Shown in pieces: positions 12,480 through 43,500 of a DNA stretch of 52,324 nt. Each line of letters starts with the position of its first letter. The first letter of the stretch is position 1. The stretch lies in IMG/VR virus record IMGVR_UViG_3300006802_000129, positions 1 through 52,324 of that record, one strand, 5' to 3'. The position numbers and the translations under genes are program-made. Source of the DNA: a virus (taxonomy: Duplodnaviria; Caudoviricetes). Below the pieces are notes generated by a model that was not told the DNA's origin, searched no databases, and worked only from the letters and a program-made list of their open reading frames with translations.

Positions 12480-12902
12480 TCAGTCCTCACTCATCAGCTT
12501 ATCTAGCTGATCCTCAAACGAGATGACTTCCTTGATAGAGTTACCATGCTTATTAAGGGAGTCAGCCATCCTAGCTACCAAAGCAGTGTCGCCTACTGAT
12601 ACACCATGCTTAGCTAAGTCTAATTGTATCTGACGTACATCGGATAAACTCCACTGCTGTGCCTTTAGGGTTAGCTGCTCGGCACTGACCCTTTCAAATA
12701 GCTTTAACTTATCGAATAAGGAGTTCAGCGCATGGATAGCCCCTCTAGTATCGTTCTCTTCGTCAGCTTTGTCGTACTGTTTTCGATACTGTTCCGCCGC
12801 CCATAACGTATCCATCTCTTGTAAAAGCTCTTGTCTACGTTGGGTAACTCGATTGATTAACTCTTTTTTGCTCTCTTCTAACTTGCTAATATTACTAGGC
12901 AT
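12480..12902 (-). CDS. Possible terminase small subunit
   Basis: Helical 140 aa (start at MPSNISK). GAIHALNSLFDKLKLF resembles the TerS A..ALE.LGK.LG.F motif; same strand as terL; no other TerS candidate in the window. Confidence 0.4.
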   Translation of the reverse strand: MPSNISKLEESKKELINRVTQRRQELLQEMDTLWAAEQYRKQYDKADEENDTRGAIHALNSLFDKLKLFERVSAEQLTLKAQQWSLSDVRQIQLDLAKHGVSVGDTALVARMADSLNKHGNSIKEVISFEDQLDKLMSED

Positions 12903-12966
12903 TTCTAAAGTATTAGAGGTGGGAAGAAAATTTATTTTACGTCGTGACTCTAACATAAGGAATAGT

Positions 12967-13371
12967 ATGTATAGATTACAGTGTATTGAAAAGACTTACA
13001 ACAATAGAGCTACTGAATTAGGTAGTGAACTGTTAGGTGAGGACTGTATCGTAGATAAAGTAACTAAGTCAATAGACTATTTAGTAACAGTAGCTGCTAA
13101 GCTATGTAAGAAGTACCATATAGATTCTACTTTTAAAACAGATGGCAGTGGATACTTATTCAATTTAAATACGATTAACTATGGCCCACTATGTATAGAA
13201 AAGTTTTATAGTCTAATCATAACTAAGGATGATAAACCCTTGGATACTTATGCCAATCAAAACCTTAACTTTAAAATACTGAAAAGATCTGGTGTCCAAC
13301 CAGTTGGAAGGAAGTTCCAGAAACTCCTCGCCAGACCAGCAACCATCAGGGATGAAAGAAAAAAGTCTTGA
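12967..13371 (+). CDS. Hypothetical protein (AT-rich)
   Basis: Start moved to ATG 12967 after AAGGA, which removes the overlap with the divergent minus-strand gene. Confidence 0.55.
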   Translation: MYRLQCIEKTYNNRATELGSELLGEDCIVDKVTKSIDYLVTVAAKLCKKYHIDSTFKTDGSGYLFNLNTINYGPLCIEKFYSLIITKDDKPLDTYANQNLNFKILKRSGVQPVGRKFQKLLARPATIRDERKKS

Positions 13372-19859: not shown

Positions 19860-20125
19860 CGACGAACCCCTTTGTAAACAGGGTAGAGCGGGATACGAAC
19901 CCTGCGTTCTATGCTGTATTGAATAGTGGTGGCGTACTATGCCGTAGTTGTGTGATCGGTGAACAGCATCTAATATTAGAAGCTACTGAAAACTATTTAC
20001 AATCAGGGTGGGATCAGAGTGGGTATTTTGTTCTGAATATAGAAGAGAATACCGAGGACTATAGCCTACGTTGCAGTCATTGCAGTGATCTTATCCCCCG
20101 AAATAAGGGGTGGCAGAAAGGGTGA
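19856..20125 (+). CDS. Small CxxC...CxxC zinc-binding protein
   Basis: GGVLCRSC and CSHC motifs. Confidence 0.65.
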   Translation: MTTNPFVNRVERDTNPAFYAVLNSGGVLCRSCVIGEQHLILEATENYLQSGWDQSGYFVLNIEENTEDYSLRCSHCSDLIPRNKGWQKG

Positions 20126-20407
20126 CACTTCTCCGATGGGTGACACTTCTTTTCCAAGCTCAGTCTAACGTTCAGTGTCTTGGCTTTTGTTGTCGTCTGT
20201 TTTTGTAACGTTGTTGTCACGAGATGTGTCACCTTTTCGAGATCTGTCATCGAAGTGTCACCCCTTCCAGCCCAGTGTTTCTCTGGCCTTGAGGGAAAAA
20301 GGTGACAGATGACAGATCTTTCCAGAAACTCTTCATGCAACTTGAAAGAATATATTCTGTTTCAAAGGTTATATAGAAACCTTTCCCGCAGAAGTGTCAC
20401 CTGTCAC
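20110..20407. repeat. Iteron-like GTGACA/TGTCAC cluster, candidate replication origin
   Basis: About ten hexamer copies in both orientations in an otherwise non-coding 400 bp. Confidence 0.7.
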
Positions 20408-20444
20408 CGACCCCCCATTTCTGCAATGAAGTGTATTTGTACTG

Positions 20445-20474
20445 TTGACTTATTCCGTCAAGAGAATGTATTAT
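20445..20474 (+). promoter_or_regulatory. Possible promoter with an overlapping TTGAC-N7-GTCAA palindrome
   Basis: TTGACT, 18-nt spacer, TATTAT; ttgac (20445-20449) / gtcaa (20457-20461). Confidence 0.4.
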
Positions 20475-20537
20475 ATGTGTACTTTATCTTTCCTCGTGTA
20501 ATCGTCTACAACTCCTAGTTTTATTCTCACTACTGCG

Positions 20538-20912
20538 ATGCTTAGCTTTACGTTGGGGTTCCCCCCATCTTTGAATAGTTATTATAAAAAATATAACAAT
20601 CGAATAATAATATCCAAAGCAGGGAAAGACTACCAAGAACAAGTAAAGTTACTAGCAATGGGTAGGCCAATGTCTTTTGTATCAAAAGACAGATTGCGTA
20701 TGGATATGCTGGTCTACCCTCCCGACTTACGTCATCGTGACCTAGATAATTTACTTAAATGCACCGCTGATTCTTTACAGAACGCAGGGGTATTCCCCAA
20801 TGATAGCCAATTAGATTGCCTCCATGTCGTACGTTGTAAGAAAGACAAACATAATCCTAGAGTCGAGGTGACCCTATCCTTATTCGAGATGGAGGATGTA
20901 CTTTGCAGCTAG
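20538..20912 (+). CDS. rusA: Holliday junction resolvase, RusA family
   Basis: PPSLNSYY, PPD...RDLDNLLK...DSL..AGV..NDSQ. Confidence 0.92.
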   Translation: MLSFTLGFPPSLNSYYKKYNNRIIISKAGKDYQEQVKLLAMGRPMSFVSKDRLRMDMLVYPPDLRHRDLDNLLKCTADSLQNAGVFPNDSQLDCLHVVRCKKDKHNPRVEVTLSLFEMEDVLCS

Positions 20913-21313
20913 ACACCATACTGGTTCGAGTACTTACAAAGTATCGTGAGCGAGCTACCAAAGGACAGGAAAAATACGGAACAACTCTAGATAGAACAGA
21001 CCTAACAGCCCAACAGTGGCTCCTCCACCTGCAAGAAGAGCTAATGGATGCCACCCTATACTGCGAGAAATTGATGAGTCCTAGTGAAAACCTACAGAAT
21101 GCTATCAAACAAGAGATCGATTCTTCTCTAGAAGAACACCTGACTAGGGCCAACACCCTAGCTGTAGTTCACCAACGTCTTTGGCTACGAATCCTAGATA
21201 AACCAGGAGATCCTAGTAGCTATCAGTACACCCCCGACGAGATGAACCTACTTAAAGAGACTGCCTTGAGCTACCTGAGTGGAGATATGTTGGGAAAGTC
21301 AACCACGAGTTAA
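20903..21313 (+). CDS. MazG-like / all-alpha NTP-pyrophosphatase-family protein
   Basis: RA.KG.EKYGTTLDRTDL...WL.HLQEELMDA.LY motif. Confidence 0.6.
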   Translation: MQLDTILVRVLTKYRERATKGQEKYGTTLDRTDLTAQQWLLHLQEELMDATLYCEKLMSPSENLQNAIKQEIDSSLEEHLTRANTLAVVHQRLWLRILDKPGDPSSYQYTPDEMNLLKETALSYLSGDMLGKSTTS

Positions 21314-21816
21314 TAGAGTGTAGTTTCAAGAGACTATTAACTGCACTGGAGTATGCAGTTGAGCCACTTTTCACGACAAAAGAAGTAGCCGATCTCGTAG
21401 GATGCTCACATCTGCTCATACGCCGATGGATTTCCAGAGGTAGTTTACCCTACGTCGAACTAGGAAAGTGGAACTACGTCCGTCTGAAGGATCTGGAAAT
21501 CCTATTGAAGACGGGCCGACCTCCGAACCAAACAGACCGTAGACGTAGCACCTACTCCCAGTTATCTGGTAATTCCCCTGCGGAATTACGAACAATGCTA
21601 TGGACACGGTACGTATATACTATGCGTAAGGAAGAGGATCGGAGGAGAACAACAGGGTCGACCGAAAACGAATACCCTACTTTTTTGGAATGGCTCCAAA
21701 CAGGTGGGAGAGAAACTCGGAGGGCATTACGCAAGCTGGAGTCCCAGCTTAATGGCGTACCCCTGTCAACTTTTTTAGAATCATTGGAGGACAAAGAGTA
21801 TACCCAGACTCTCTGA
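21298..21816 (+). CDS. Excisionase-type HTH domain plus C-terminal region, probably made by -1 frameshift from the upstream gene
   Basis: The frame of ORF 21505..21816 is open back to 21256 and encodes PLFTTKEVADLVGCSHLLIRRWISRGSLPYVELGKWNYVRLKDLE, with no ATG/GTG/TTG before 21505. Confidence 0.65.
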   Translation, partial: VNHELIECSFKRLLTALEYAVEPLFTTKEVADLVGCSHLLIRRWISRGSLPYVELGKWNYVRLKDLEILLKTGRPPNQTDRRRSTYSQLSGNSPAELRTMLWTRYVYTMRKEEDRRRTTGSTENEYPTFLEWLQTGGRETRRALRKLESQLNGVPLSTFLESLEDKEYTQTL

Positions 21817-21928
21817 CAGGTCGATAGCTAGAGTTTTAATTAGCGTTGTGGACTCACGGTAAATAGTAGACGGAAGCTTGAGGGAGCCTCCATTATTTTA
21901 TTTACGGCTATCGACCTGTCAGAGAGTC
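21807..21928 (+). ncRNA. Candidate structured RNA B (22-bp closing stem)
   Basis: gactctctgacaggtcgatagc (21807-21828) is the exact reverse complement of 21907-21928; inner gagt/actc and gtaaata/tatttac stems. Confidence 0.6.
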
Positions 21929-22033
21929 GAGCAGGCAGACAGGCGTTACCTGCTTTAAAATCCTTATGCCTAGACGGTTTCAATTACTCTGTCGTCTTTA
22001 AACTTAATCGAGTGCTGAATACCTAGGAGCAAG

Positions 22034-22651
22034 ATGCTTAGCCAAAACCAAGTTCAACTACTATCTTTTAGTGGAGGTGACGAGTCACACGCCCGAGCAG
22101 CATGGGTATCTACTTCAACAGATCTTACCCAACACAGACATCGAGTACCAGAGCTATTATCTTTCCTTGCAGCAAACGATCACGGCTCACCCTTTGAGCA
22201 CAGTTCGTTTACCTTTCATATCCGTAGCGATCTAGCTACCCACATCCAGTTTCTCAAGCATCGGGCTGGAGTCAGTATCAATACGGAATCCGCTAGATAC
22301 AAGGAGTTAACAGACGATAGCTTTTACTTACCAGGCGATTGGCCTGACGAGGCGAAGCACAGGGCTGCCAGGCAAATAGAAGACTGTATGAGCGGATACC
22401 ACAAACTAGTAGACGAGCTGACTCCCGACATTGGTAGGAAGCGTGCGAAAGAAACAGCTAGGTTATTGATACCTTATGCACACCAGTTGAGTTACATAGC
22501 CACCTTTAACTTCCGTTCTTTTATGCACTTTCAGAAACTACGCAATAGTGAACAGGCCCAAGACGAGATCGCTACCATAGCAGACGAGATGCTTGAACTA
22601 CTGCGTGCTACTGGGATGTATGAAGATTCCCTTATGGCTTTTGGTTACTGA
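22034..22651 (+). CDS. thyX: Flavin-dependent thymidylate synthase
   Basis: HGSPFEH, KHRAGVSINTESARY, KETARLLIP, NFRSFMHF..LR, AQDEI. Confidence 0.93.
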   Translation: MLSQNQVQLLSFSGGDESHARAAWVSTSTDLTQHRHRVPELLSFLAANDHGSPFEHSSFTFHIRSDLATHIQFLKHRAGVSINTESARYKELTDDSFYLPGDWPDEAKHRAARQIEDCMSGYHKLVDELTPDIGRKRAKETARLLIPYAHQLSYIATFNFRSFMHFQKLRNSEQAQDEIATIADEMLELLRATGMYEDSLMAFGY

Positions 22652-23742
22652 AGACAAGCTAAGGCTGCTCTCATATCGGATTGATCCGAGTAGGCGTAGC
22701 GTTCAGTCGTAGACGTTTTGCTATGCCTACAGATCTCAGCAATCACCGGCAGAGGAACCTTTGCCCTCATCAAGGTAGTCACTAACGAAGCACGGAATCC
22801 GTGTAGTGGCTTAACTTTACCCTTGAGTCCCAACTCTTTTACTACTGGACGGACGAGTTTAGTCATTGCCGAGACATCGCAAAAAGCTGGATGACCCGAA
22901 CCTGTGTCCAAGTAGTACGTCTCTTGAGCATCACGAGCCGCCAGATCCTGTGCTAGAAACTCCTGTAATGGTTTCGGTACAGGAAGTATTGCAGCTTTGC
23001 CCTTCTTTGGAGACCAGTTTAGTTCCGGTACATGACGGATTAGGATTTCCGATTGGCTCAGAAATATATGACGAAGCGGCAGCGTCCGCACTTCCGAAGC
23101 TCGCAATCCTAGATAGCGCAACATCATTACCATGCGTAGTCCATTACGGTTTCGCTCCGACATGGCAGCTTGGATATGCTCAAGATCCGTGAGGCTATAC
23201 ACCCCTCGTACCCGATCTTCTTCTGCTACATTTTTCAGAGTGATCTTCGGGATGAGTCCCTGACTATGCAGATAGTTTAGATAGATCCCGACCATCCGCA
23301 GATAGCTTCTCGTTGAGTTACGGCTCAGTCCGTCTGCGTCACAGCGTTTAATAAATTCACTGCTACTATTATCCGCTAGACTAGCGAGTTTTAGATCTCC
23401 GACAATCTCAATGAACTTGAGAACCGAAGATCGATACTCTTTCCTAGCTTTCTCTGTTCTAACCGTTAGCTGATTGATCCAGATTTCTACCCATTCACTC
23501 ATGCGTAGGTTAGCAACCGCCGTATTATTATTTAATGAGGCCTTTACTTTATTAGCTATTTCTTCCAGCAGACAATCGATCTCTAGCTGAGAGCGTCTGC
23601 GTCTGCCGCTACGTGTGCTTTTGAACTGGATGTCATCGTCGTCGGCTAGCTTTCTAAAGAGCAAACTATTTTCAGTATGTACTCGTAGATACCAGGCCTG
23701 ACGATCTTTTCTATAGAAAATCTCCTGTCGTTTACGTGGCAT
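22645..23742 (-). CDS. int: Tyrosine integrase
   Basis: GLRASEV (R), K in SPKKGK, LHGFR (HxxR), CRHS (H), TTERYA (Y); basic N-terminal arm-binding-like region. Confidence 0.9.
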   Translation of the reverse strand: MPRKRQEIFYRKDRQAWYLRVHTENSLLFRKLADDDDIQFKSTRSGRRRRSQLEIDCLLEEIANKVKASLNNNTAVANLRMSEWVEIWINQLTVRTEKARKEYRSSVLKFIEIVGDLKLASLADNSSSEFIKRCDADGLSRNSTRSYLRMVGIYLNYLHSQGLIPKITLKNVAEEDRVRGVYSLTDLEHIQAAMSERNRNGLRMVMMLRYLGLRASEVRTLPLRHIFLSQSEILIRHVPELNWSPKKGKAAILPVPKPLQEFLAQDLAARDAQETYYLDTGSGHPAFCDVSAMTKLVRPVVKELGLKGKVKPLHGFRASLVTTLMRAKVPLPVIAEICRHSKTSTTERYAYSDQSDMRAALACLQ

Positions 23743-26496: not shown

Positions 26497-27799
26497 CTTT
26501 GTTAAACGATTACACCACTACAATGAGAGTGAACACTCATACTTGTCCGCTAGTAAGATGGAGATCTGGGGTAACTGCCCTGGAGCAGTGGAGCTAGCGG
26601 AACGTATCGTGTTACCCAACCAGCCCAGCAGCTACGCCATCGAAGGGACGATGGCCCACAAACTAGCAGAGCAGACTCTTCGAGGGGACATCGAGATACC
26701 GGAAGACGGACTCGAAAAGCTAACGCAAGGTGATCCGGTTGCCAACGACTTCCTGCCATCTGTGGAATACTACGTAGATTATGTGATGGAGAGAGTACGG
26801 GAGCTACGGGCCGAGTATCGTAGAAAGAAAGTCAAGGACGAACCTAAAGTAGCAGTAGAGCAGCGAGTTGGCCTTAACCCTCTGCTAGATCGTGACCCTT
26901 CTGGTCATACCTTGATCAACATGGTCAGCATGTACGGAACCGTGGACTGTGTGATCCGTGCAGACAAGGGAACATGGGGGTTGCCGCTTGATATAATCGA
27001 CTACAAACACGGGGCTGGAGTACCAGTAGAGATCTGTGATGACTCAGGCTTCGGCCCGAACCCACAACTTATGTACTATTTACTAGGAGTACTCGCTGAT
27101 GATTTTAGAATTCCTGCCGACTACGGCTTCACCGAGGCATACCTCAAGAAAAGGTATAGCCGCTACACTATTCACATTGTTCAACCACGTGTACCGGGGA
27201 AAGGAGGTAGCTATGAAGTAACAGTAGATCAAATACTACAGTTCTATCAGGAGCTAGTTGACAAGAGCGCAAGAGCGTTGAATCAACACTTAGCCCAAGA
27301 CATCGATGAACTCAGCCTTAACACAGGAGAATGGTGTCGTTGGTGTCGGGTAAAAGACTATTGTCCTAAGTTTTTAATGACGCAAATACAAGAGAGCATG
27401 GAGGACTTTATGCAGTTCGATATGATGGAGACTGGAAAGATCGGTAAGAACGTCGATGATCTTGACAATGGTCAGCTTTCTGATATACTGACAAAAGCTG
27501 AAAGAGTGGAGCGAATGATTCGCTTAGTGCGGAATCATGCAGAAGCTAAACTATATGCCGGAGATAACATCCCTGGCTTTGGACTAGTAGACAAACGAGC
27601 TACAAAGAAATGGTCAGACGAGAAGCTAGTACTTGGGATTATGAAGCGTCTCAACATCGACCCGTTCAAGTTCCTCAACCTGCCTTCTCCGAGTGCTTTA
27701 CTGAAAGTACTACCGAAGACAGTAAGTACGGAACTGAATGACTTAGTAGTCAAAGAGTCTAGTGGTAAACGCTTAGGCAAACTTCGAGAGGAAGGATGA
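26468..27799 (+). CDS. Cas4-like PD-(D/E)xK exonuclease (DUF2800 type)
   Basis: HSYLSAS...W.NCPG, EGT.AH.LAE, GTVD, IIDYKHG.G.PV, NPQL..Y, CRWC.....C. Confidence 0.88.
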   Translation: MKLAQTTTDDFVKRLHHYNESEHSYLSASKMEIWGNCPGAVELAERIVLPNQPSSYAIEGTMAHKLAEQTLRGDIEIPEDGLEKLTQGDPVANDFLPSVEYYVDYVMERVRELRAEYRRKKVKDEPKVAVEQRVGLNPLLDRDPSGHTLINMVSMYGTVDCVIRADKGTWGLPLDIIDYKHGAGVPVEICDDSGFGPNPQLMYYLLGVLADDFRIPADYGFTEAYLKKRYSRYTIHIVQPRVPGKGGSYEVTVDQILQFYQELVDKSARALNQHLAQDIDELSLNTGEWCRWCRVKDYCPKFLMTQIQESMEDFMQFDMMETGKIGKNVDDLDNGQLSDILTKAERVERMIRLVRNHAEAKLYAGDNIPGFGLVDKRATKKWSDEKLVLGIMKRLNIDPFKFLNLPSPSALLKVLPKTVSTELNDLVVKESSGKRLGKLREEG

Positions 27800-28155
27800 C
27801 CAAGAAAGAAGTATCGATCAAACTCAACGTAACGAGTGAGACAGTCAGAAACTGGATACGTGATGGCGTGCTAGTTCCTGACGAGAAGGGAGAGTTCAAG
27901 GCCGAGGACGTTATGGCTTTGGATACCTCCAAGTACGAAGATAGTTTCCGATGGTGTACAGTCCAGCAAGCAGCACACTTACTGGGACTCACCCGTGCAA
28001 CTATCTTTACCTACTGTTCTAGCGGCACTCTGGTTAAAGAGAGTATGCGAGGACGTAGTTTCATTTCCCTTGCCAGTATCCGTGACCATCTGATGATGGA
28101 GAGCAAGCAGATCACTGGTAAACTTAATAATGTTGTCGCCTTAATGGAGCAATGA
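27796..28155 (+). CDS. Tandem MerR/excisionase-type HTH protein
   Basis: TKKEVSIKLNVTSETVRNWIRDG and TVQQAAHLLGLTRATIFTYCSSG. Confidence 0.8.
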   Translation: MTKKEVSIKLNVTSETVRNWIRDGVLVPDEKGEFKAEDVMALDTSKYEDSFRWCTVQQAAHLLGLTRATIFTYCSSGTLVKESMRGRSFISLASIRDHLMMESKQITGKLNNVVALMEQ

Positions 28156-28933: not shown

Positions 28934-29506
28934 ATGATCTCTTTCGACTTAGAGACTAGAGGTGTTGTTGACCTACGGAAATGTGGATCGTATCGCTATG
29001 CTATCGACAGTCTGACTGATGTCTGGTGTCTCTGCTATCACGACAGTGAGACCGATGAGTACCATACGTGGCTGCCTAACGATGACGTACCTCCCTGCTT
29101 TCTAAAATCAGACAATACCTACTGCGCTTGGAACGCACAGTTTGAGCGCAACATTCACCAGCACATCCTCCAACCTCGCTACGGTTTCCCTGCTATCGAG
29201 ATCGAGCAATGGCACGATACGGCTGCTTGGGCTAGGCAACTCGGACTACCAGGAGCACTAGGCAAAGCAGGTCAGGCGCTAGGTCTACCTCTCGATCAGC
29301 AGAAGGACAAGGAAGGTAGCAAGGTAATGATGCGGATGGCTAGGCCACGCAAGTGGTCTGACCGTGGCGTACCGATTTGGTGGGATGAGCAAGAGAAGCT
29401 AGATGTCCTCATAGACTACTGCCTCCAAGACGTAAAGACAGAGAAGAGTATTCGCAATCTCTTAATCGAAATCGCTAAGTACTCTGACATAACACTACTT
29501 ACCTAG
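28934..29506 (+). CDS. DNA polymerase A, 3'-5' exonuclease part
   Basis: ExoI SFDLET, ExoII AWNAQFER, ExoIII YCLQDV. Confidence 0.9.
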   Translation: MISFDLETRGVVDLRKCGSYRYAIDSLTDVWCLCYHDSETDEYHTWLPNDDVPPCFLKSDNTYCAWNAQFERNIHQHILQPRYGFPAIEIEQWHDTAAWARQLGLPGALGKAGQALGLPLDQQKDKEGSKVMMRMARPRKWSDRGVPIWWDEQEKLDVLIDYCLQDVKTEKSIRNLLIEIAKYSDITLLT

Positions 29507-29513
29507 GTATCCC

Positions 29514-31001
29514 ATGCAGGAAATTGAAGTGTTTCACTTCAACGAACTGCTCAACGACAGGGGTGTAGGGGTAGACCTCAAAAGTATAGACAAGCTAGTA
29601 TCCGTATGCGACGAAATCCGTAATGACTACGAGGATAAAGTCCGTGCGCTTACTGGTGGTATGGTGGATTCTGCGAAAGCAGTAAGCCAAGCTATGAAGT
29701 GGATCGCTAAGCAAGGCAAGCCTGTACCGGACTTGACTGCAAGGACGATTGACCAACTCTTGTCTCCTGAGATTGCCGCTACCTTTCCCCCTCAAGTTGT
29801 GCAGTTCTTGGAGTATCGGAAGATTGTTTCTAGGTCTTCCATTGCTAAGTTCAATGCCTTCCAAGAAACCGTCAGCCCTGACGGTAAGATCCACGGCATG
29901 ATGTTCTACCACGGAGCACATACCGGACGCTGGACTAGTAAGCTCGTGCAGCTACAGAACTTCCCTCGTGGTAAAGCCAAGCTAGACGATACAGAGGTAG
30001 AGCTAATCCTCACCAGCCTACACAACAACGACCCTAGAGAGTTTATCGAATGGTTGGAATACAAGTGTGAGCAGGAGAAGGGCTGGATCTCTCCGATTGA
30101 AGTCATCTCTACCCTGCTTCGTTCGATGATCGTTCCTGATGAAGGCAGGGTCATGTTGATCTATGACTACGCCAGCATCGAGTCTCGTGTACTAGCTTGG
30201 CTAGCAGACTGTAAGGAACTCCTCGATGCGTTCAAGAAGACCGATAGCGGTGAGGTTAGCTGGGATGTCTACATGCTGATGGCATCCAAGATCTACAAGG
30301 ACGATGTGGAATCCTATACCAAGAGCGATCCGAAGCGGCAGCACGGTAAGGCTGTTGTTCTAGGGTGTGGCTATGGGATGGGGCCAGCAAAGTTCCACGA
30401 GACTTGTGCTAGTCAAGGACTCACGCTTACCGAAGAGGAGGCTAACAACATGGTCTATAGCTTCCGTGACTCTTTTTCTGAGATTCCGCAGCTTTGGTAT
30501 CGGATAGATTCCGTGATGAAAGAGGTAGCCAAGAAGGTGGATAGCTCCCCGATAAAAGCTACCGATAACATCTCCTTCTACCGAACCAATAGCTTTGTGT
30601 TTTGCCGACTCCCTAACGGCAGAGATCTAGCTTACCCCATGATGGAAGTTAAGAATGAACTTAACCCCTATCTAGGTAAGACCGTTGAAGCGCTCTCCTA
30701 CATGGGATCGGATGTCCAACATCCTTGGTGTCGTAAAAAAATCTACGGTGCTAAGGCAGTAGAGAATATCGTTCAAGCAGTTGCTAGAGACCTGATGGTT
30801 GATGCAATGCTCAAGCTAGAGAAGGCAGGATTCGAGGTACTCTTCAGTGTCCACGATGAGATCGTCTGCCAGATCGACCAAGAGGACTATAGCTCCGAAC
30901 GTGTCGCTCAGTTTGAAGAGATTATGACTACTGTACCTGAGTGGGCTACCGGACTACCAATTCAAGTAGAAGGAACGGCAAGTGCTAGATATAGGAAGTA
31001 A
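29514..31001 (+). CDS. DNA polymerase A, polymerase part
   Basis: NDRG, TGRW...QLQNFPR, motif A DYASIESRV, motif B RQHGK.VVLGCGYGMG, motif C VHDEIV. Confidence 0.93.
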   Translation: MQEIEVFHFNELLNDRGVGVDLKSIDKLVSVCDEIRNDYEDKVRALTGGMVDSAKAVSQAMKWIAKQGKPVPDLTARTIDQLLSPEIAATFPPQVVQFLEYRKIVSRSSIAKFNAFQETVSPDGKIHGMMFYHGAHTGRWTSKLVQLQNFPRGKAKLDDTEVELILTSLHNNDPREFIEWLEYKCEQEKGWISPIEVISTLLRSMIVPDEGRVMLIYDYASIESRVLAWLADCKELLDAFKKTDSGEVSWDVYMLMASKIYKDDVESYTKSDPKRQHGKAVVLGCGYGMGPAKFHETCASQGLTLTEEEANNMVYSFRDSFSEIPQLWYRIDSVMKEVAKKVDSSPIKATDNISFYRTNSFVFCRLPNGRDLAYPMMEVKNELNPYLGKTVEALSYMGSDVQHPWCRKKIYGAKAVENIVQAVARDLMVDAMLKLEKAGFEVLFSVHDEIVCQIDQEDYSSERVAQFEEIMTTVPEWATGLPIQVEGTASARYRK

Positions 31002-34579: not shown

Positions 34580-37500
34580 CTACTCAAAATTTTCTTCAAT
34601 TCTAGATAAACTTCCTCCTGTTAATCGAGCCATCTCCTCATAGATATCTTTGGCCTTCCTCTCATAGTCCTCTTTGATCCTCGCTAGCTTTTCATCATCA
34701 AGATTCCCGATCTTAGAGTAGCGTTCTACTTCACGGTTCATGGCTTGCTTTGCTTTTCTCAAGCGGAAGTTCAGCGTATTCATGCGCTTGCTCTGCTCCT
34801 CGCTCAGCTTAAAGCCGTAGGCGTTGAAACCTGCTGTCTTCGATAGCGCTTGCCAGATATTGTTGCGGATATTCCCTCTGCTATCATACATCAGCGAGTC
34901 ACCGACAAGGGATTCCTTGTAGCCTAGCTCGTGCAATCCTGCATCTAATAGATTCATAGCTGTTCCATTCGACGCTAGCATTGCTGGCATCACGGAGTCG
35001 TAATAGAACTTAGCATAGGCTAACCACTTATCTGTCTCTGAGATGTCTGGATCATCTACAATCTCCCTTTGCTTAAACGGATCATAGCCGGATGCTGCCG
35101 CTACCGTCATGCTCCAGAAGGGTGAACTGAATGCACCCATTGTCTTTGCGGCATTGGAGAACTCAAGGCTGAGTAGTTGTTCGATTGCCTGAGCGTGACT
35201 AGCATATGGCAGGAGGTACTGCATATCGACCATCAATACATTTCCATTCTCGTCCTTGTAGGGGAACGGGAACATGAATGGCCCCTTCTTCTGTACCCAA
35301 TCCGGCATCAATGCCTTGAACTGCTCTTCGTCCTCGTCCTCCAATCCTCTTGTGATGTACTGTGCTAGTCCATAATTTAATGCTAGCGGTACTGCTAGAC
35401 GATGCCACTTGCTCGGAGACTTAATGATGTCTGCAAAAAACGGAGTAGCTTTGTATGTCCAGGTTACAAAAGGCATTCCGAAAGCAGAGCGTCGTACCCA
35501 CCGAATTCCTTGACTGACTTCTGAGTAGTCAAAGAGTGGCTTGTTCGCCTCGATCAGTGCATCTGCTGCACTCATCCCCTTCTGATCCTGCATGTACATT
35601 GCAAATGCTAGCTTATTCCAGACCTCAATCCCTTGGTACAAATCCCCTGTAACTTCTCGTAACCAAGTGTACTTGCGATCTAGTTGTGACCCAGGTTCTG
35701 CTAGTGACTTCATCAACTCTAGGATATCTTTTGGCTCATCTCCTCGTGCTTCCCGTTCTGCTCGTGCAATCCGTGCTAGCGACTTACGGTCTAGTTGTCG
35801 TAGCTCATTGGCACTGAAGGTAGTCTTGACTAGCCCTTCTCGTTTGAATTCATTGTAGCGATCTCCTTTGTTTCTAATTTCTGATGCAGCTTTCCACAAA
35901 TAGTCGAGCCGATGCAGAGGCATTCCTGCTAGGTGCATCATGATCAGGTTTGATACGATGTTCCTACCCCATGACGGGATGTTCGCTACAACCTTGCCCC
36001 ACTTCCAGAAGTCTATGAACTTATCCTGCCGGACTGCCCACTCGTCATTCATCTTCTTGTATAGCTCAACGTCTCCTAGAATATCTTGATAGATCTCCTT
36101 CCTCAGTAGCATACCCCGAAACGCTCCGTACCGAACATCATCCGGCACAGGAACCCAAAGGCTAGGGTCGTAGTCAAAGTCTAGGTTTTCATTAGCCCGA
36201 TCCTCCATCGACCTTGCCACTCTGCGGTAGAGATCTGCTTTATCCCCACTACTATTGTCCGCTAGATTTCTGATGCGCTCAGCCTCTGATCTTAGGAAGG
36301 AAGCGGATACCTGCTTATCATCCTGCTGGAGTACTGGCCCACCTAGTACATCTTGGGCGTTTAGGTTGGCATCATCTAGGGCTTGCTGAATAAACTCTGC
36401 ATAGTTTACGGTGATGAATGAATCTCTATGTACAAAATCAAACTGAATGTCATCATCTAGCCTGATCCCTGATAGCGGCAACTCTTGGTTACGCATACTA
36501 TCGATCCTAGTCTCCGGTGTTCGGCTAACCTGGGCTAGTAGCTGGAACATCTCCAGCATGGCTAGGTCACGGTTCGGTTGGATCAGTGCTCTAGCTGTCA
36601 GGAACATTGGATCTTTGACCTCACCCCAGAAGCTACGTAAGGCTTGGTCGATATCTTTTCTGCGGCTCAAGTAATCTAAGTTGGACACTGCTTTGCCGCT
36701 AGAGAAAGCGATCCGGTCATCCTCGTTGAGCAAGTACATTAGATACTTACGTGGCAGGTAATTGCCATCGTACTTGTCAAAGGACTCAGGAGATAGTAGT
36801 CCTGCTCGGACTAGGCTTAGTCCGGTCTGACTAATCTTCTCTCTTGCCTTAATGACATTGGCCTGTACATCCGGTGCTAGCCCGTCAATGATCTCCTGCC
36901 GCTCTGTTGCATTAGTAGCAGTGAAGGCATCAAATACCTGTTGGATCTCTTCGGTATCCAGATTCTCAAAGGAGGATGCTAGTGTACCGTAGGTCTCCTC
37001 AATCTCTCCAACTACCCCAGCAAAACGATTCTTTACCTGACGATAGAACTGAGCCATCTCAGGACTCAACCCTGCAAAGGGGTCGAAGAACTGGTGGATT
37101 TTAGCCCCTAGTTTCCGTAGTCCATTCTCCTGACTCATGTGTGTAGGGCCAAACTCTCCGGCTCTTTCACTCAATAGTACTTGTTGCTGTACCTCTGGAT
37201 CGTAGTCGTCAAAGACGGTGTAGCCTTCCTCACTGACTGTACCTCGAACTCCGCTACGTAGCATAGCCTGAGCTACTGCCGTGGAGTCTCCTAGCTCTTG
37301 CATCAGGGAGTCGTGCTCGTCCTTAATCTCACTGAATGGTACAAACTCTTCTACTCTACCTCGTGTAACCAGCTCCGTAGGAGTTGCAGGAACTAGTTCG
37401 TTGTTCGCCAGAAACTCTTGGGTCAGGTAATTATTGATGAGCTGCTTCTGTACTATTCGAGCTGCATCCGTGTTGTTATCCGCATTGTACTTGTTGAGTG

Positions 37501-40500
37501 CCGCACTGAGTTGTACCTGCTCTGCTTCATATAGCTGACTCAACTCGGCAAGGGTAACTCCGGTAGTCGCTAGTCGATGATTGATGTCACGTAATGCTAG
37601 CTCATGATCCTTACGTTCCAGGGGTGTATCTGTAGTGTAATACTCCTGAGTCCCACCTAGGTTTTCCGTTCGATTGTAGAAATCTACTACGTCTTCGTAG
37701 GTGTCAAAATGTTTTCCGGTTACACCCTTGGCATTTGTAGTACTCGGTGCATAGTTCTCGCTCATTACAGTGTACGCTTCCGATAAACCAGACTCCGGTG
37801 TGACCACTTCTCTGAAGGGTGCAACGTAATCTACAGCAAAACGGTCAGGGATCTCAAAGCCCATCCGTCCATCGGCTAGTTCTTCCAAACGGAACCCGTA
37901 AGATTTGTAAGGTTCTAGCGAGAACAGCTTCCTCAAGGTAGCAGGAGTACGGGCATCCCCAGTATCTACTGCAACCCTAGGTTCTCCGGCATCTGCATAG
38001 TCCATTATGTGCTCTGAAAACAACTGGATACTTGCACTTTCATCTATTGCTTTTTGTTTATCCGTCAGGTTATCTTCCGCCTTTTTAGTTTCTTGGGGGT
38101 TCTTCTCCTCAGACTCTGTGGTTTTTGCTGGCTTTGCGACTTTAGGTGCAGTCTTAGTTACCGTACTAGCAGCCTTCTGTTTCTTCTTCGTAGCTCGTAG
38201 CTCCTTGTTGATATCCGAGTACATCCGAATCACAAACGCATCGGTAATCTTCTGCTTGTCTCTACCCTGTAACTTGTCACGTAGGTAAAGGTGCACCCGA
38301 TCTATCAGGTTTAGCTCTTGAATCCCATCCTCTGTGAAGTTCTGTGCTAGCCACTCGTGTGCTCGGATAGCGGCATCCTGATGGTGGTTCTGGCTATTCG
38401 GTACAGCAGTAGTACCAGAAGGTTGTCGATATCTATTGTTGTACCAAGCATCGATCTCCTTCCGTCGATCCGTGTAGACTCGTTTCGCAAAATCATCATA
38501 GGATTTCTGGCTACCAAAGGTCTTACGTAATCCATAGTGTCCGATTGCCTCATGGTAGAAAACTCCAAGTCCTCTGCGAATCAAAGGCTTTAGGTCAGAT
38601 AGTTTGAACTGGTCTGCAATGAAGATCACCTTCGGCCCATCTGCTCCTGGTACTACAGCGCCCTCGATCTTTGAGCCTTCCATTGTGCCGCTCTCTAACT
38701 TATCGGCAACCGCATCATTCTTGCCACGGTAGGCAGCTACTGCTTCTGCACGGTCTTTGAAGACTACGAAGTCATCTGCATTCAGACCCTTGAAGACACT
38801 CTTAGTCAGCCAATCTACTAGGTGTCTAAGTACATCGTACTGGTGTGGCTTATCTGTCCGGTCAAGTTTTGCCTTCTCAGTAGTGGACTCCTCACTCATT
38901 AACACAGAACCTTGATCCCCGTCTGCCTCTTTCTTTGCTTCCTCAAGTGTCGTCAGGTTGACAGTCCTAGGCTTGCCTCCGGTAGTAGAATTTAGCTTTG
39001 CTTTTGCAACTCCTTTGGCATTTGTTGATATGTTTTCAACTACCCAGTCCTCACCCTTGTATTTTACTGTGTCACCTACTTCTACTGTTGTTTCTGTAGT
39101 ATCTACCTGATCTTCTGCTTTCGCCTGTTCCGTGAGACTGTTTTCGTACTGCTCCTGTAATCGTGCTAGCTCTTCGTCTACTGAAACAATAGGTACATCG
39201 GAAGCAGGGATAACGGTTTCCGTATCGGGTACGGAAGTGCTCATAGCCTGTTGAATCAGTTCTTCCTGCTGTCTCAGGAGGATCGGGTAGACCTCAGACT
39301 CGGCTAATTCTTCTGGAGTAAAGTCTCGTTGTAGGTCTCGAATCGCCCGATCAATCTGCCTACGTTGTTCAATCAGTGGCTGAGCTAGTTCCTCTTTGGT
39401 AGCAGGATCGTTCACCCGGTTGATCAGTTCTAGTATCCTGAGTTCTTTCTGCTGGAAGGTCTCTCGTCGAGTAGGTGTTGCCTCCTCCACAGGTGCTACA
39501 AAATCAAACTCGGAATCAACCCACTCACCAAATTCGTTAGCGGTAAAGTCGTTATCATCGAAAAGAACAATCGGCTGAAGGATACCATTGTCATCCAGCA
39601 TTGCTGTCATAGCCTTAACGGTCTTGCGCTCTCCGGTCTTTCGGTTAACCGCAATACCCCCTACCTTCAGATGGGATGCTCGGACTTCTGAATAGCCTGT
39701 CTCGGCCTCTCGTTTTCTACGGATCGCATCGGCTGAGAGATCCGGTGAATCCTCGTAAGCTTCCTCTCGCCTACGTGCGGCTAGCTCTGAATCTCTCTTG
39801 CTAACCGTAATTGGATCGTAACTTTCACGGGCAGTCAGGGCAGCTACATCGGCAGCAGAGAACTCCTGACCAAGCACCGTAGCCATAATCCCTGCTATTT
39901 CTTCATTGGTTATCTTGGCGTAAGCACTCTTTTCCGATCTATCTATTCTAACACCTAATGGTAACAGCCCACCTGTCACCCCTGCCGTCGTACCCCCAAC
40001 TTGTGCTGCCTGTGCCTCTCGGTTCTGTTGGGCTGCTAGCTGGTTCCTCCTAGTGACTAACCTACGAGCATAGGTCTGTGCCTGTCGAGGAGTGTCTGCT
40101 TCTTCTAAGGCTTTTGCTAGCCGATACATCTCGTCATCTTCTCGCAGTCCTCGGTACTCTCCTTCACCGATAGGTCGGCCCTGCTCATCGTACTCACCTG
40201 TCCATATATTGATGTCCTCGTCCGTAGGTGCGTCATCTCCTCGCCAACGAGTACGAATTGCCTCATCTGCTTCGGGAGTGATACCAGGATCTTCACTGCG
40301 CCACATCGTACCTGTTCGCTCTCGTGGCCCTGTAGTAGCGGGTGAGGCAGCCGTGGTAGTAGCTGCTAGTGGAGCAGGACTAGCAGTTGGGATCGTACTA
40401 CTCGGTGTTGCCTCACGGGGATCTGGTGTTGTGGGGATATTTGCTTTCTTCTGCTCAAGTTTCTGGTAGGTGTTGAGGGTACTCCACTGGATCTTACTAT

Positions 40501-43500
40501 CCTTGTCTGCCCCATCCATCCTCCAGTTGACCTGCTTGTCTGTAGCGTCAATAAAATAGAAGAGCTTGCCCTTGTGCATGATCGGCTGACCCTTCTTGAG
40601 AACCTGTTGTGCAAGTTCCCGTGTCAGGTTACGTGAGTCAATCGGTGCTACATTTCTCTTGGGAGGGGCAGGTGCGGCCTTGGGCTTTTCTGCGGCTGGA
40701 GGTGCAGGGGTAGGTGTAGCAGGAGCTTCTGTCTGTGCAGCTAGTAACTTTTCTAATGCTCGCTCGACAGGTGATACAATCTTTCCGTTCTTGAAGGTAA
40801 GTTCTTTCCCGTTTTCATTGGTAGCTTTTACGTCATTACCGTTAATTTCCTTGATAGTGTAGTTAACGATTTTCTTGTCGGCTTTTTCGTACGGAACTAC
40901 TGCACCTACTTTGATTGCAGGAGGAAGTTCCGTGGCTTTCGGCTGAGCCGGAGTCTCCCCCTTGTCAATACTCTCTGCCTTCTGGATTCCTGCTTCTAGT
41001 GTAGCGGGCTTGTAGGGCTTGGGATCTTCTCCCTCCTTCTTCATCAGGTACATGCCCTTGTCGTTCTTGCCTGTAACTTCTAGCTCAAACGGAACCGCAT
41101 TCTTTACCCTAGGTGATGCGTACCTAATCTTAGTGCCTGGCTCATACTGGAGGTTATCCTCAAGTACTTCTGTTTCCTTCGGCTTACTTTCTTTGACCTC
41201 TGTTCCCTTCTCTTTCTTTGTATCAACCTGCTTGACTAGATCTTCGGCTACCCCGTCTACTGTTTTCTTCTCAGCCTCAACAGGTTTCTGGGTAGCCTTT
41301 GCTTTCTTGTCCTCTGTTCGCTGAATCCCTGACCGTATTCCTTCCAGCGTAAAATACCGATAGGTCTTCTCTCCTTCCTTCTGAACTTGAACAGGTTTCT
41401 TTCCGCCTTTGCGTACTTTGATAATCTTGTACTTACTAGTAATTCCGTTTTGAGTTGTGTACTCAAAGACCGTCCCTTCTACACCACTTGTAGTCGTCTC
41501 CTCGGTTGCAGGAGGTGTAGGGATAGGGGTAGGTGTAGGTGTAGCTTTTTCTGCTTTCTCTTCTTTCTTTGCAGTCTTACGCTCTTGTAGCTTCTGAGTC
41601 TCTGTCTTTGCAGGTTTGCCATCAAAAGCGTCAGCAGTGAACCAGTTGAACTTCCCTTCCTCTTTGTGCAGACCCTGCACTTTCCACTTACCTTTGTTCT
41701 TACCCTCGGCTTGTTCTACCTCAACAAACTTCCACTGCTGCGGAGTCTTGCCCTTGGAGTTTGTCAGGATAGTACCTACTTTCGGAGGAGTGATCTCACT
41801 AGTAGCAGTAGTAGTTTCTTTCTTCGGTGCAGGAGAGGGAGTAGGAGGGGGAGTAGGAGGGGGAGTAGGAGAGGGAGTAGTCTTAACAGTAGCTCCTTGC
41901 TCCTTTGCGTCCTGCTTTGCTTTCCTCTTTGCTGCTAGTTTTTGGGTCTCAGTTGGCCCCTTCTGGATACGTGCAATTTGCTCAGCCGCTCGGTTACGGA
42001 TAGCATCCAGTGCGTTTGCGTCATCGTAAGACACACCCTCATAGCCTAAAATCTTTTTTAGTGCTTTCTCTAACCGTTGCTCCCCTTTACGTTCGCTAGT
42101 GTAACGTACCCTTGGTGCATTTTTTATAAGTGGGTCGGTCACAGGGAAAAGCTGGTCTAGCCTTTCCGCCATCTCCTTGAGTTCTGGGCTACCGTAGTAA
42201 TTATTTATGTCCTCTTCTGTAGTTTTATTGAGCCACCCATCTATCATTGGGTCTTCATTTTTCCCTAACCCCCAGACTGGATACCACTTATGTTTTGCTA
42301 CATTCTCCTTCCCTCCTGCTCCGGTAGAATTATAAAATAAAACAGGTACTCCGTTAACAGGAACTACAATCATCGGCCTTCCGCCAATGCGAACTATTCG
42401 ATCTTCCCCTATTTTTACATACTTTTTATTCTCAGAATCTAGTTGAAGCGCACCCCACTTTAGTGGGCGGGCTTGAAGATCGTCTAGCCGAGAGTCCTGT
42501 TGTGTAGTTGCAGCTTGTGCTTCTGGAGCTACCTGTACTCCTTCAGTTAACGGAGCTTCTAGATCAACATCTCTTTCTGTAACAATAGTGGGAGTAGTAC
42601 TAGTAGTAGGTTGTGCATCGGTAGCAACAGGAACTGGAACTTCTGCTGGAGCTTTCTCCATCTTGGAGATATCCGCCCACTTTACGACTCTTACCTTTTT
42701 CGTTACTTCATCTACTAAGCGAACCCCCCGTTTACTCAGCCCTGCATAGATGTAAGTCTTCTCGTTATCTCGAATAAACGTTGGCAAGGCTGGAGGGTTG
42801 TAGGTCTTACCGTCCCAGGTTGCAGGGGAGAATTGTTTAGTAATTTCTTTTGTTAAGTCTGCTAGGTCATAGGTTTGTTCTGCTCTCCTCTTCTGTGCTT
42901 CTACATCCTGTAAAATCTTAGCGGCCTCTGCTTCTCGTTGCCTCTTCTCCTGCTCACGGGCTAGCCTCTCATCTTTTATTGCTTTATCAACGGCCTTCGC
43001 CCCTGCTTCTGCCTCTGCTTCTAGCCGATCTTCCGCCTCTTTCTTCTGTTGCAGTTTCGTCTGTGGATCTAGTGCTACTTCTGCGGTACTGATTACTCCA
43101 CTAGTCATACCTCCAGCAATTGCACCTACGTATGCACCGTGGAAGGCTTGGTTCCTGTTCTCCGTCTTATCCAGCCATGATAAGTAATCAGTAGCTAACT
43201 CATCCGAATTGGCAATCGCATCAAAGCCTTGCTCCTGTGCGTGCTCCTTGAGGATCTGGTTGACGGAGTAGCCTTGAACTACTACATCAGAAAACTCACT
43301 AGCCGCTTCGGTTGCTGCGTCAAAACCTATATTAGCTACAATCTTAGTTCCAATTGCTGCGCCCTTAGCTACTGGAATCCCTGAAAGAGCATCCGTTACT
43401 GCGGCAAGGCTAGTCATTCGATTGTTGTAGGCTCGCCTCGCAATCTTTGTAGTTAAGTCCCGCTCAATATCCGGTAGCTCTTGAGACGTATACTTCCCTT

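Follow-up and report, generated by a model that had tools for sequence, protein, structure and literature searches.

How a protein can be made from a reading frame that offers no start codon is the question raised by a locus in the IMG/VR virus record IMGVR_UViG_3300006802_000129 (Duplodnaviria; Caudoviricetes). The whole stretch of 52,324 nucleotides (nt) is referred to here as the window and forms a 52-kb viral record with an estimated completeness of ~71%. Within it, an open reading frame (ORF) of 136 amino acids (aa), here called ORF0, ends shortly after the heptamer G GGA AAG and is overlapped by a -1 frame that encodes a helix-turn-helix (HTH) domain without a start of its own. The sequences point to a conserved programmed -1 ribosomal frameshift, giving rise to the 136-aa product and a 304-aa fusion, a reading to which we assign a probability of roughly 85%.

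ORF0 occupies positions 20903..21313 of the plus strand and begins with TTG, with a GGAGG 7 nt upstream at 20891-20895; the position of this start agrees with the ATG or GTG starts of its relatives. The 3′ end reads ...ATG TTG GGA AAG TCA ACC ACG AGT TAA, then TAG, and places the proposed shift site G GGA AAG (21292..21298, plus strand) in the X XXY YYZ phase of ORF0, just as a sequence-only reading of this DNA had claimed. The tandem zero-frame stops TAA TAG (21311..21316, plus strand) end ORF0 four sense codons past the heptamer. The -1 frame is closed upstream by a TAA at 21253..21255 (plus strand) and runs open from 21256 to a TGA at 21814-21816. Its first ATG, GTG or TTG is TTG 21505, inside the conserved protein and past most of the HTH domain, and the earlier statement that no such codon lies upstream of the HTH thus holds. 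The frame comprises a linker of 23 codons, VNHELIECSFKRLLTALEYAVEP (21298..21366, plus strand), which belongs to the -1 frame alone, lacks a start codon and is predicted to be helical (helix residues 3-21), followed by an excisionase/MerR-type winged HTH domain (21367..21510, plus strand) and a conserved C-terminal region ending with the TGA (21511..21816, plus strand). The predicted products are accordingly 136 aa and 304 aa long, the latter composed of 132 aa from frame 0 and 172 aa from the -1 frame.

In a single genome, such a heptamer could well occur by chance. The window contains 9 copies of GGGAAAG where 6.1 are expected, and the 49 window ORFs scored contain 24 in-phase X XXY YYZ heptamers. 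The significance of the heptamer therefore comes from its conservation in relatives and not from the single-genome match. Relatives were obtained from one scan of JGI metagenome contigs, which returned 14 loci. Both ORF0 and the HTH frame are found in nine of these, representing five lineages by aa identity to the window: L002, which is identical, L003 (87%), L006 (60%), L004 (56%), and a group consisting of L005, L007, L008, L009 and L010 (55%; the L005 group). Two further loci, L011 and L012, end at a contig edge and stand outside the nine, and L013-L015 lack ORF0 and encode generic HTH_17 proteins that stand alone and start with ATG. In addition, Logan contigs of three freshwater sequencing runs (X1, X4 and X5, X1 possibly being the source run of the window record) are the same as the window over 20850-21900 without a difference, and a 1498-nt contig from the marine run X7 represents a ~94% relative with 63 differences and 0 gaps over 20904-21891. 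Here, the TAA at 21253-21255 is missing (21253 T>C).

All nine loci show ORF0 followed by the HTH, with the HTH in the -1 frame. GGGAAA is invariant in nine of nine, lies in X XXY YYZ phase and precedes the Glu codon of the peptide EPLF by exactly 69 nt. The full heptamers, GGGAAAG in the window, L003 and the L005 group, GGGAAAA in L004 and GGGAAAC in L006, are all valid X XXY YYZ sequences. The codon before the heptamer is TTG, TCG, ACG, GTG or CTG and specifies four amino acids (L/S/T/V), with a wobble base that is always G, and the Gly codon of the heptamer is GGA in every lineage. From the codon usage of the window, the odds are ~1.2e-4 for the wobble G and ~2e-3 for the GGA.

Past the heptamer, only the -1 frame of the linker is open in all five lineages, the other two frames carrying 1-4 stops each, and the mean BLOSUM62 score is 2.85 in the -1 frame versus 0.35 and 0.46 in the others. 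Across the lineages, the linker protein reads VNHELIECSFKRLLTALEYAVEP, INKPRLDQNFRRLIKALEYAVEP, VSEAKLNDAFHRIVACLEYATEP or LNATNIEESFQRLATALEYAVEP. In the body of ORF0, the differences between the window and L003 are 40 synonymous and 10 non-synonymous in frame 0, compared with 5 and 45 in frame -1, and none of the five differences past the ORF0 stop alters the protein read in the -1 frame. Among the run-comparison differences listed (40 of 68, in order up to 21646), those of X7 at 21309, 21318, 21331, 21334, 21337 and 21339 change no amino acid in the -1 frame, and the two at 21286 and 21290 change none in frame 0, as read by eye. Judged from these substitutions, the coding constraint switches from frame 0 to frame -1 at the heptamer. 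The stops of the individual lineages narrow this further. L006 has a -1 frame stop one codon before GGG (TGA TCT GGG AAA C) and L004 has one 4 codons before GGG, while the ORF0 stop of L004 stands directly after the heptamer (GGGAAAA TAA), compared with 4 or 5 sense codons later in the other lineages. Taken together, the -1 stop of L006 and the ORF0 stop of L004 make the heptamer the only stretch where all lineages could change frame. The locus thus combines features used to recognize sites of programmed ribosomal frameshifting (PRF), namely an in-phase X XXY YYZ heptamer, an overlapping -1 ORF without a conserved start, and nucleotide conservation together with a frame-switching constraint. 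The earlier proposal of a -1 shift yielding products of 136 and about 300 aa is strongly supported by this comparative evidence, that is, the conservation of the heptamer and the constraint on both frames.

Database searches agree that the HTH part is not found joined to ORF0 in a single frame. The HTH protein forms 6 clusters among 5.8 billion sequences, with called lengths of 138-157 aa. The gene-caller starts for these clusters fall at four different places, two of them inside the HTH domain: the column of CTG 21346, a position 4 codons upstream of the CTG, the Leu of 'PLF' and the Val of 'KEV'. Searching longer proteins with the 172-aa part gave 0 matches to an in-frame fusion, and a profile search over 84-303 aa returned only the 6 short clusters. 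Beyond a distant HTH-only locus (L016), no relatives were found among 50,697 cultured or deposited phage records, in IMG/VR or among 185,579 species represented by one genome each. From the ORF0 side, a HMMER search gave 3178 matches at E≤1e-3 (1.84 billion representatives), mostly to residues 3-60. Only two full-length relatives (141 and 144 aa) are among the best 150 of the 3178, and neither is fused; an 80-aa fragment among the matches also ends ...TTGK. The relatives keep the heptamer in phase and show neither an in-frame fusion nor a shared normal start codon, and a normal start in relatives was one of the outcomes that the sequence-only reading had named as refuting the shift.

We infer both the slippage itself and its efficiency. 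When a ribosome translating ORF0 reaches G GGA AAG, its P site would hold tRNA-Gly paired to GGA and its A site tRNA-Lys paired to AAG. In a minority of ribosomes, the tRNAs would then re-pair one base back, on GGG AAA, and translation would carry on in the -1 frame, and unshifted ribosomes would stop 4 sense codons further on at TAA TAG, releasing the 136-aa ORF0 protein. The shifted product of 304 aa would comprise ORF0 residues 1-132, the helical linker, the winged HTH and the conserved C-terminal region. As the HTH part has no start of its own, it would be made only as a fusion, at a fixed low ratio to ORF0.

Other routes to an HTH product have to be weighed against this frameshift. Ribosomes might initiate independently at a weak start in the -1 frame, such as CTG 21346 (21346..21348, plus strand) or a TTG in relatives, thereby producing a free HTH protein of ~156 aa and leaving the heptamer incidental. 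Gene callers do begin P0001-P0003 at this Leu codon, and HTH_17 proteins usually start a few residues before the first strand, as the ATG-started L013-L015 do. Moreover, the codon is TTG in L004 and L006, where some independent initiation is possible. Yet the CTG, already named as an alternative by the sequence-only reading, is replaced by TTA in L003 and by CTT in the L005 group, neither of which is a start, and no aligned column between heptamer and HTH is start-like in all lineages. The 16 codons upstream of the CTG are conserved as protein, with synonymous changes only, and a Shine-Dalgarno (SD)-like core 7-16 nt upstream, present at 27/48 window ORF starts, is absent at CTG 21346, ATA 21313 and TTG 21505. 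Independent initiation would also leave the invariant GGGAAA, the wobble G and the fixed spacing unexplained, and we consider it improbable. Termination-reinitiation, in which ribosomes finishing ORF0 would begin again close by at a -1 frame codon such as ATA 21313, appears highly improbable. In its favour, the window, L003 and L006 each have a -1 frame ATA that overlaps the region of the ORF0 stops, and L004 has one behind the heptamer. The latter, however, belongs to another alignment column, and at the column of ATA 21313 both L004 and the L005 group read CTA. Both ATA and CTA are very poor initiators, which speaks against such a restart, and heptamer conservation would again be left without an explanation.

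The same fused protein could also be an artefact or arise before translation. The 304-aa reading needs exactly one base fewer than the DNA contains, and metagenome assemblies do carry indels, so that an assembly or sequencing error, or a recently pseudogenised single gene, had to be considered. The check for an indel that the sequence-only reading had called for turned up nothing to refute the shift: X1, X4 and X5 are identical and X7 has 0 gaps. Because these independent contigs show no gap, an assembly indel is excluded at the site. The same frame layout recurs in five lineages (55-87% identity) with purifying selection on both sides of the site, and no intact single-frame version turned up in the protein database searches, which makes this general class of explanation extremely improbable. 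The chance of transcriptional slippage is just as slight; here, RNA polymerase would slip at GGGAAA, and mRNAs with one base fewer or two more would encode the same fusion protein. Known slippage sites are homopolymer runs of ~7 or more, and the runs here, 3+3, fall short of these. The conserved phase and wobble G fit tRNA re-pairing, whereas transcriptional slippage needs neither, although some mobile elements do make use of it, as described in PMC5009743.

Besides the TTG codons of L004 and L006, several observations weigh against a programmed frameshift. The comparison draws on five lineages, two of which (the window and L003) are close to each other, and the heptamer and CTG of X7 are unchanged among the differences listed, which are only part of the total. 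The stretch is absent from the RNA runs searched. RNAalifold found no shared RNA structure after the site, and none lies at the usual spacing of 5-9 nt; folding the 82 nt downstream one sequence at a time gave z-scores from -0.3 to -2.1, and synonymous-shuffle tests are not significant. According to the data given in PMC4066793, the best heptamers without stimulators reach ~0.3% in E. coli, and GGGAAAC, the heptamer of L006, is a poor shifter there. 

The site resembles heptamer-only signals. In E. coli, G_GG.A_AA.G is described as one of the three most shift-prone heptamers and as reaching a few percent at most where the 3′ context is favourable (PMC4066793), and insertion sequence (IS) elements are reported to use G_GG.A_AA.A and G_GG.A_AA.C (PMC4066793, PMC5009743). 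By analogy with these E. coli data, the efficiency of the shift would probably range from a fraction of one percent to a few percent. Two stimulators had been proposed from the sequence alone. The arms of the downstream stem, ttaatag and ctattaa, are indeed present at 21310-21316 and 21334-21340, but the stem (21310-21340) is not conserved: it pairs in 26 of 42 cells, is equalled in 31 of 500 shuffles and does not occur in the minimum-energy fold, so that its role as a stimulator is not supported. Likewise, the GGAG at 21281..21284 (plus strand), 7 nt upstream of the heptamer and a possible SD-like stimulator, is present in the window and retained as GGAGA in 4/5 lineages, L006 having GGTGAT. 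A stimulatory role is unsupported, as it cannot be separated from coding because GGAG encodes a conserved Gly-Asp/Glu. A hairpin AACTGCA-N8-TGCAGTT (21339-21360) surrounds the CTG/Leu codon in 4/5 lineages. It does not count as a demonstrated stimulator either, being no more stable than synonymous-codon shuffles (fractions 0.18, 0.054, 0.96, 0.043, 0.28) and lying 41 nt from the site, and it may just be a consequence of the peptide TALEYAV. A search of Rfam over 20000-22700 gave no family except a chance-level match.

What the two parts of the fusion are can be judged from profiles and predicted folds. The HTH part matches PF12728 (HTH_17) from codon 21367 (E 1.5e-6, 28.8 bits versus a cut-off of 27) and TIGR01764 'excise', the excisionase family of DNA-binding proteins (31.4 bits versus a cut-off of 28.8), bearing out its earlier description as an excisionase-type HTH. 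The AlphaFold2 model of the -1 frame part has a predicted local distance difference test (pLDDT) score of 73 overall and ~80 over the HTH domain, and consists of the helical linker, the winged HTH, a disordered stretch and a helical C-terminal region with helices at residues 94-119, 129-135, 138-150 and 156-162; this last region, including the disordered stretch, has no family match. The winged HTH resembles BldC (Z 8.1, root-mean-square deviation (rmsd) 1.5 over 51 aa; Foldseek E 0.014, TMt 0.80) and the Xis of mycobacteriophage Pukovnik (Z 7.0, rmsd 1.9 over 51 aa), the next matches being N-terminal domains of the MerR family and other excisionases; RdfS gives Z 6.3 and rmsd 5.5 over 66 aa. 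By both profile and fold, the HTH part belongs to the excisionase family/HTH_17.

For ORF0, the sequence-only reading had suggested a MazG-like enzyme with a nucleotide-pyrophosphatase fold, an assignment that found no support. ORF0 matches 0 Pfam families at E≤0.1 and no NCBIfam entry, MazG families have 0 matches among 41 aligned ORF0 relatives, and the window gave no match to the MazG profiles PF03819 and PF12643 even at E≤10, though control genomes responded. A profile of the 41 relatives matched no solved structure. The AlphaFold2 model (pLDDT 87) is all-helical and made of two helical hairpins, with helices at residues 5-25, 36-58, 62-99 and 111-126. Foldseek with this model returned nothing at E≤0.001, and a wide fold search gave only generic hairpins (histidine-kinase DHp) on residues 61-129, the best at Z 6.7 and rmsd 3.1 over 68 aa, with the N-terminal domain barely covered. 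ORF0 has a conserved E45 E46 x x D49; MazG itself is a four-helix bundle with EExxE/D metal-binding motifs. The N-terminal domain of ~60 aa is widespread in small phage proteins without assigned function and occurs alone in hypothetical proteins of 135 phage records. In PHROG, ORF0 matches only families of unassigned function, and in the ESM Atlas only unnamed viral clusters (score 0.89). A homodimer prediction scored 0.15 versus a mark of 0.42 and counts neither way.

The genomic setting gives further indications of a role. The gene order RusA, ORF0, HTH, ThyX, integrase (minus strand), repressor (minus strand) and helicase is conserved throughout, the integrase lying two genes from the HTH. 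The likeliest role, as we infer it, is dosage-limited control of excision/integration or early transcription, as a DNA-binding domain that exists only as a minor fusion would be kept at a low, fixed dose. The helical ORF0 part may be a module for oligomerisation or partner binding, which would be tethered to DNA in the fusion. It could also be speculated, although we regard it as unlikely, that the frameshift is a stoichiometry device for the lysogeny decision, by which the state of the host ribosomes gates excision, integration or early transcription. In that case, the 136-aa and 304-aa proteins would share the oligomerisation module and form mixed assemblies, in which the shift efficiency, depending on host tRNA-Lys and translation state, would set the number of DNA-binding arms per assembly. 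If true, this would be a phage counterpart of the bet-hedging of FseA, using a -1 signal and an unrelated protein family.

A second ORF with an excisionase/MerR-type HTH (119 aa) is found at 27796-28155 in the replication module, and its PHROG matches suggest two HTH_17-like stretches. This ORF could be the true recombination directionality factor, leaving the fusion a regulatory role. Directly behind the HTH gene, a 22-nt perfect inverted repeat (21807-21828 and 21907-21928, 78 nt between the arms) overlaps the HTH stop with its first arm. Inverted repeats of 23-29 nt with different or compensatorily changed sequence occupy the same intergenic place in L003, L006, L007 and L011, and none was found at that place in L004. 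The repeat may be a long RNA hairpin, an operator, or an attachment (att) or origin (ori) element.

Elsewhere in the window, an in-phase A AAA AAG (13359-13365) lies 4 codons before the end of ORF 12769-13371, which has a TTG start, is without a family and may not be a genuine gene. Two adjacent ORFs, 28934-29506 and 29514-31001, in different frames and 7 nt apart, share the DNA polymerase (phrog_17) between them and match the consecutive profile parts 672-828 and 842-1231; this may be a natural split or another site of recoding or interruption. On the minus strand, 34580-44353 holds a single ORF of 3257 aa; the ORFs after it encode 1209 aa, including a transglycosylase-like stretch, and 828 aa. 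All three have the look of giant internal-virion proteins or ejection proteins from a podovirus-like phage. The capsid protein is at most 35% identical to that of any cultured phage.

Almost every frameshift annotated in phages sits in a tail-chaperone gene; in the SEA-PHAGES data reported in PMC10885494, 2397 of 2476 joined PRF genes are tail assembly chaperones. Here, unlike that usual setting, the gene with the conserved, canonical -1 signal is a regulatory, DNA-binding one that stands beside an integrase. No described frameshift in a phage excisionase/HTH gene was found in the literature searched, while the 69 candidate clusters of PMC4066793, some from prophages, might include a related case. 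The mechanism is canonical, and the gene family and lysogeny-adjacent setting are new as far as that literature goes. One practical consequence is that gene callers mis-annotate the HTH protein in every relative, and start-less ORFs behind in-phase heptamers in metagenomic phages merit comparative checks. If confirmed, the locus would add a new gene family to the few bacterial and phage recoding cases with a regulatory product, and would offer a clean minimal test system in which the heptamer acts alone without an obvious RNA stimulator. It would also suggest that dosage-limiting frameshifts in modules for excision or regulation have evolved in phages too, as in the FseA system of an integrative and conjugative element (ICE).

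Among known systems, the small Xis and MerR-like proteins are the nearest relatives in fold, yet their architecture differs. BldC, Pukovnik Xis, RdfS and Tn916 Xis are small (~55-70 aa), free-standing proteins with their own starts, whereas the domain described here would sit in the middle of a predicted 304-aa transframe protein and be followed by a conserved C-terminal region of ~100 aa. In IS elements, too, one product carries an HTH, which sits in the upstream OrfA. The OrfAB proteins of IS3, IS911 and IS1 share with this locus a -1 PRF on X XXA AAN, including G_GG.A_AA.G/A/C, in mobile-element genes, as well as a product ratio that regulates DNA transactions (as set out in PMC4066793). 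The domain order is reversed, however, since an OrfA HTH is there followed by a DDE catalytic extension, and no transposase domain is present here. Moreover, IS signals usually come with a hairpin or pseudoknot, and none is conserved at this site.

The G-T frameshift of lambda has a rate of ~4% and is not known to require a strong RNA stimulator. According to PMC5009743, lambda G/GT shares with the present locus the heptamer G GGA AAG, a shift a few codons before the zero-frame stop, and an abundant short product alongside a rare C-terminally extended one with a common N-terminal part. Yet there is no homology between the two, and the gene described here lies outside a tail module, between RusA and ThyX and next to the integrase and repressor. 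What the shift would add is a DNA-binding domain instead of a tail-protein-binding one, and no tape-measure gene was recognised among the window ORFs scanned, in a phage that looks podovirus-like. With RusA, ThyX, integrase and repressor as neighbours, ORF0/HTH was rejected as a lambda-type tail assembly chaperone.

Finally, FseA (Msi172-Msi171) of the Mesorhizobium ICEMlSymR7A is described as activating excision and as being produced solely through a +1 frameshift, at 4-13% (PMC4755241, PMC5009743, PMC5882170), which limits the dosage of the activator (PMC4755241, PMC5009743). These accounts place the FseA shift on UUUC and in the +1 direction, not in the -1 direction on a heptamer, and in a proteobacterial ICE, not a phage. 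The protein family also differs, being given as DUF2283 in PMC4755241 and as DUF2285, an HTH variant, in PMC10359603. FseA has single-ORF variants, whereas none turned up for ORF0/HTH in the protein database searches. Thus, the closest functional precedent for the ORF0/HTH locus is FseA, while the closest mechanistic precedent is lambda G/GT.

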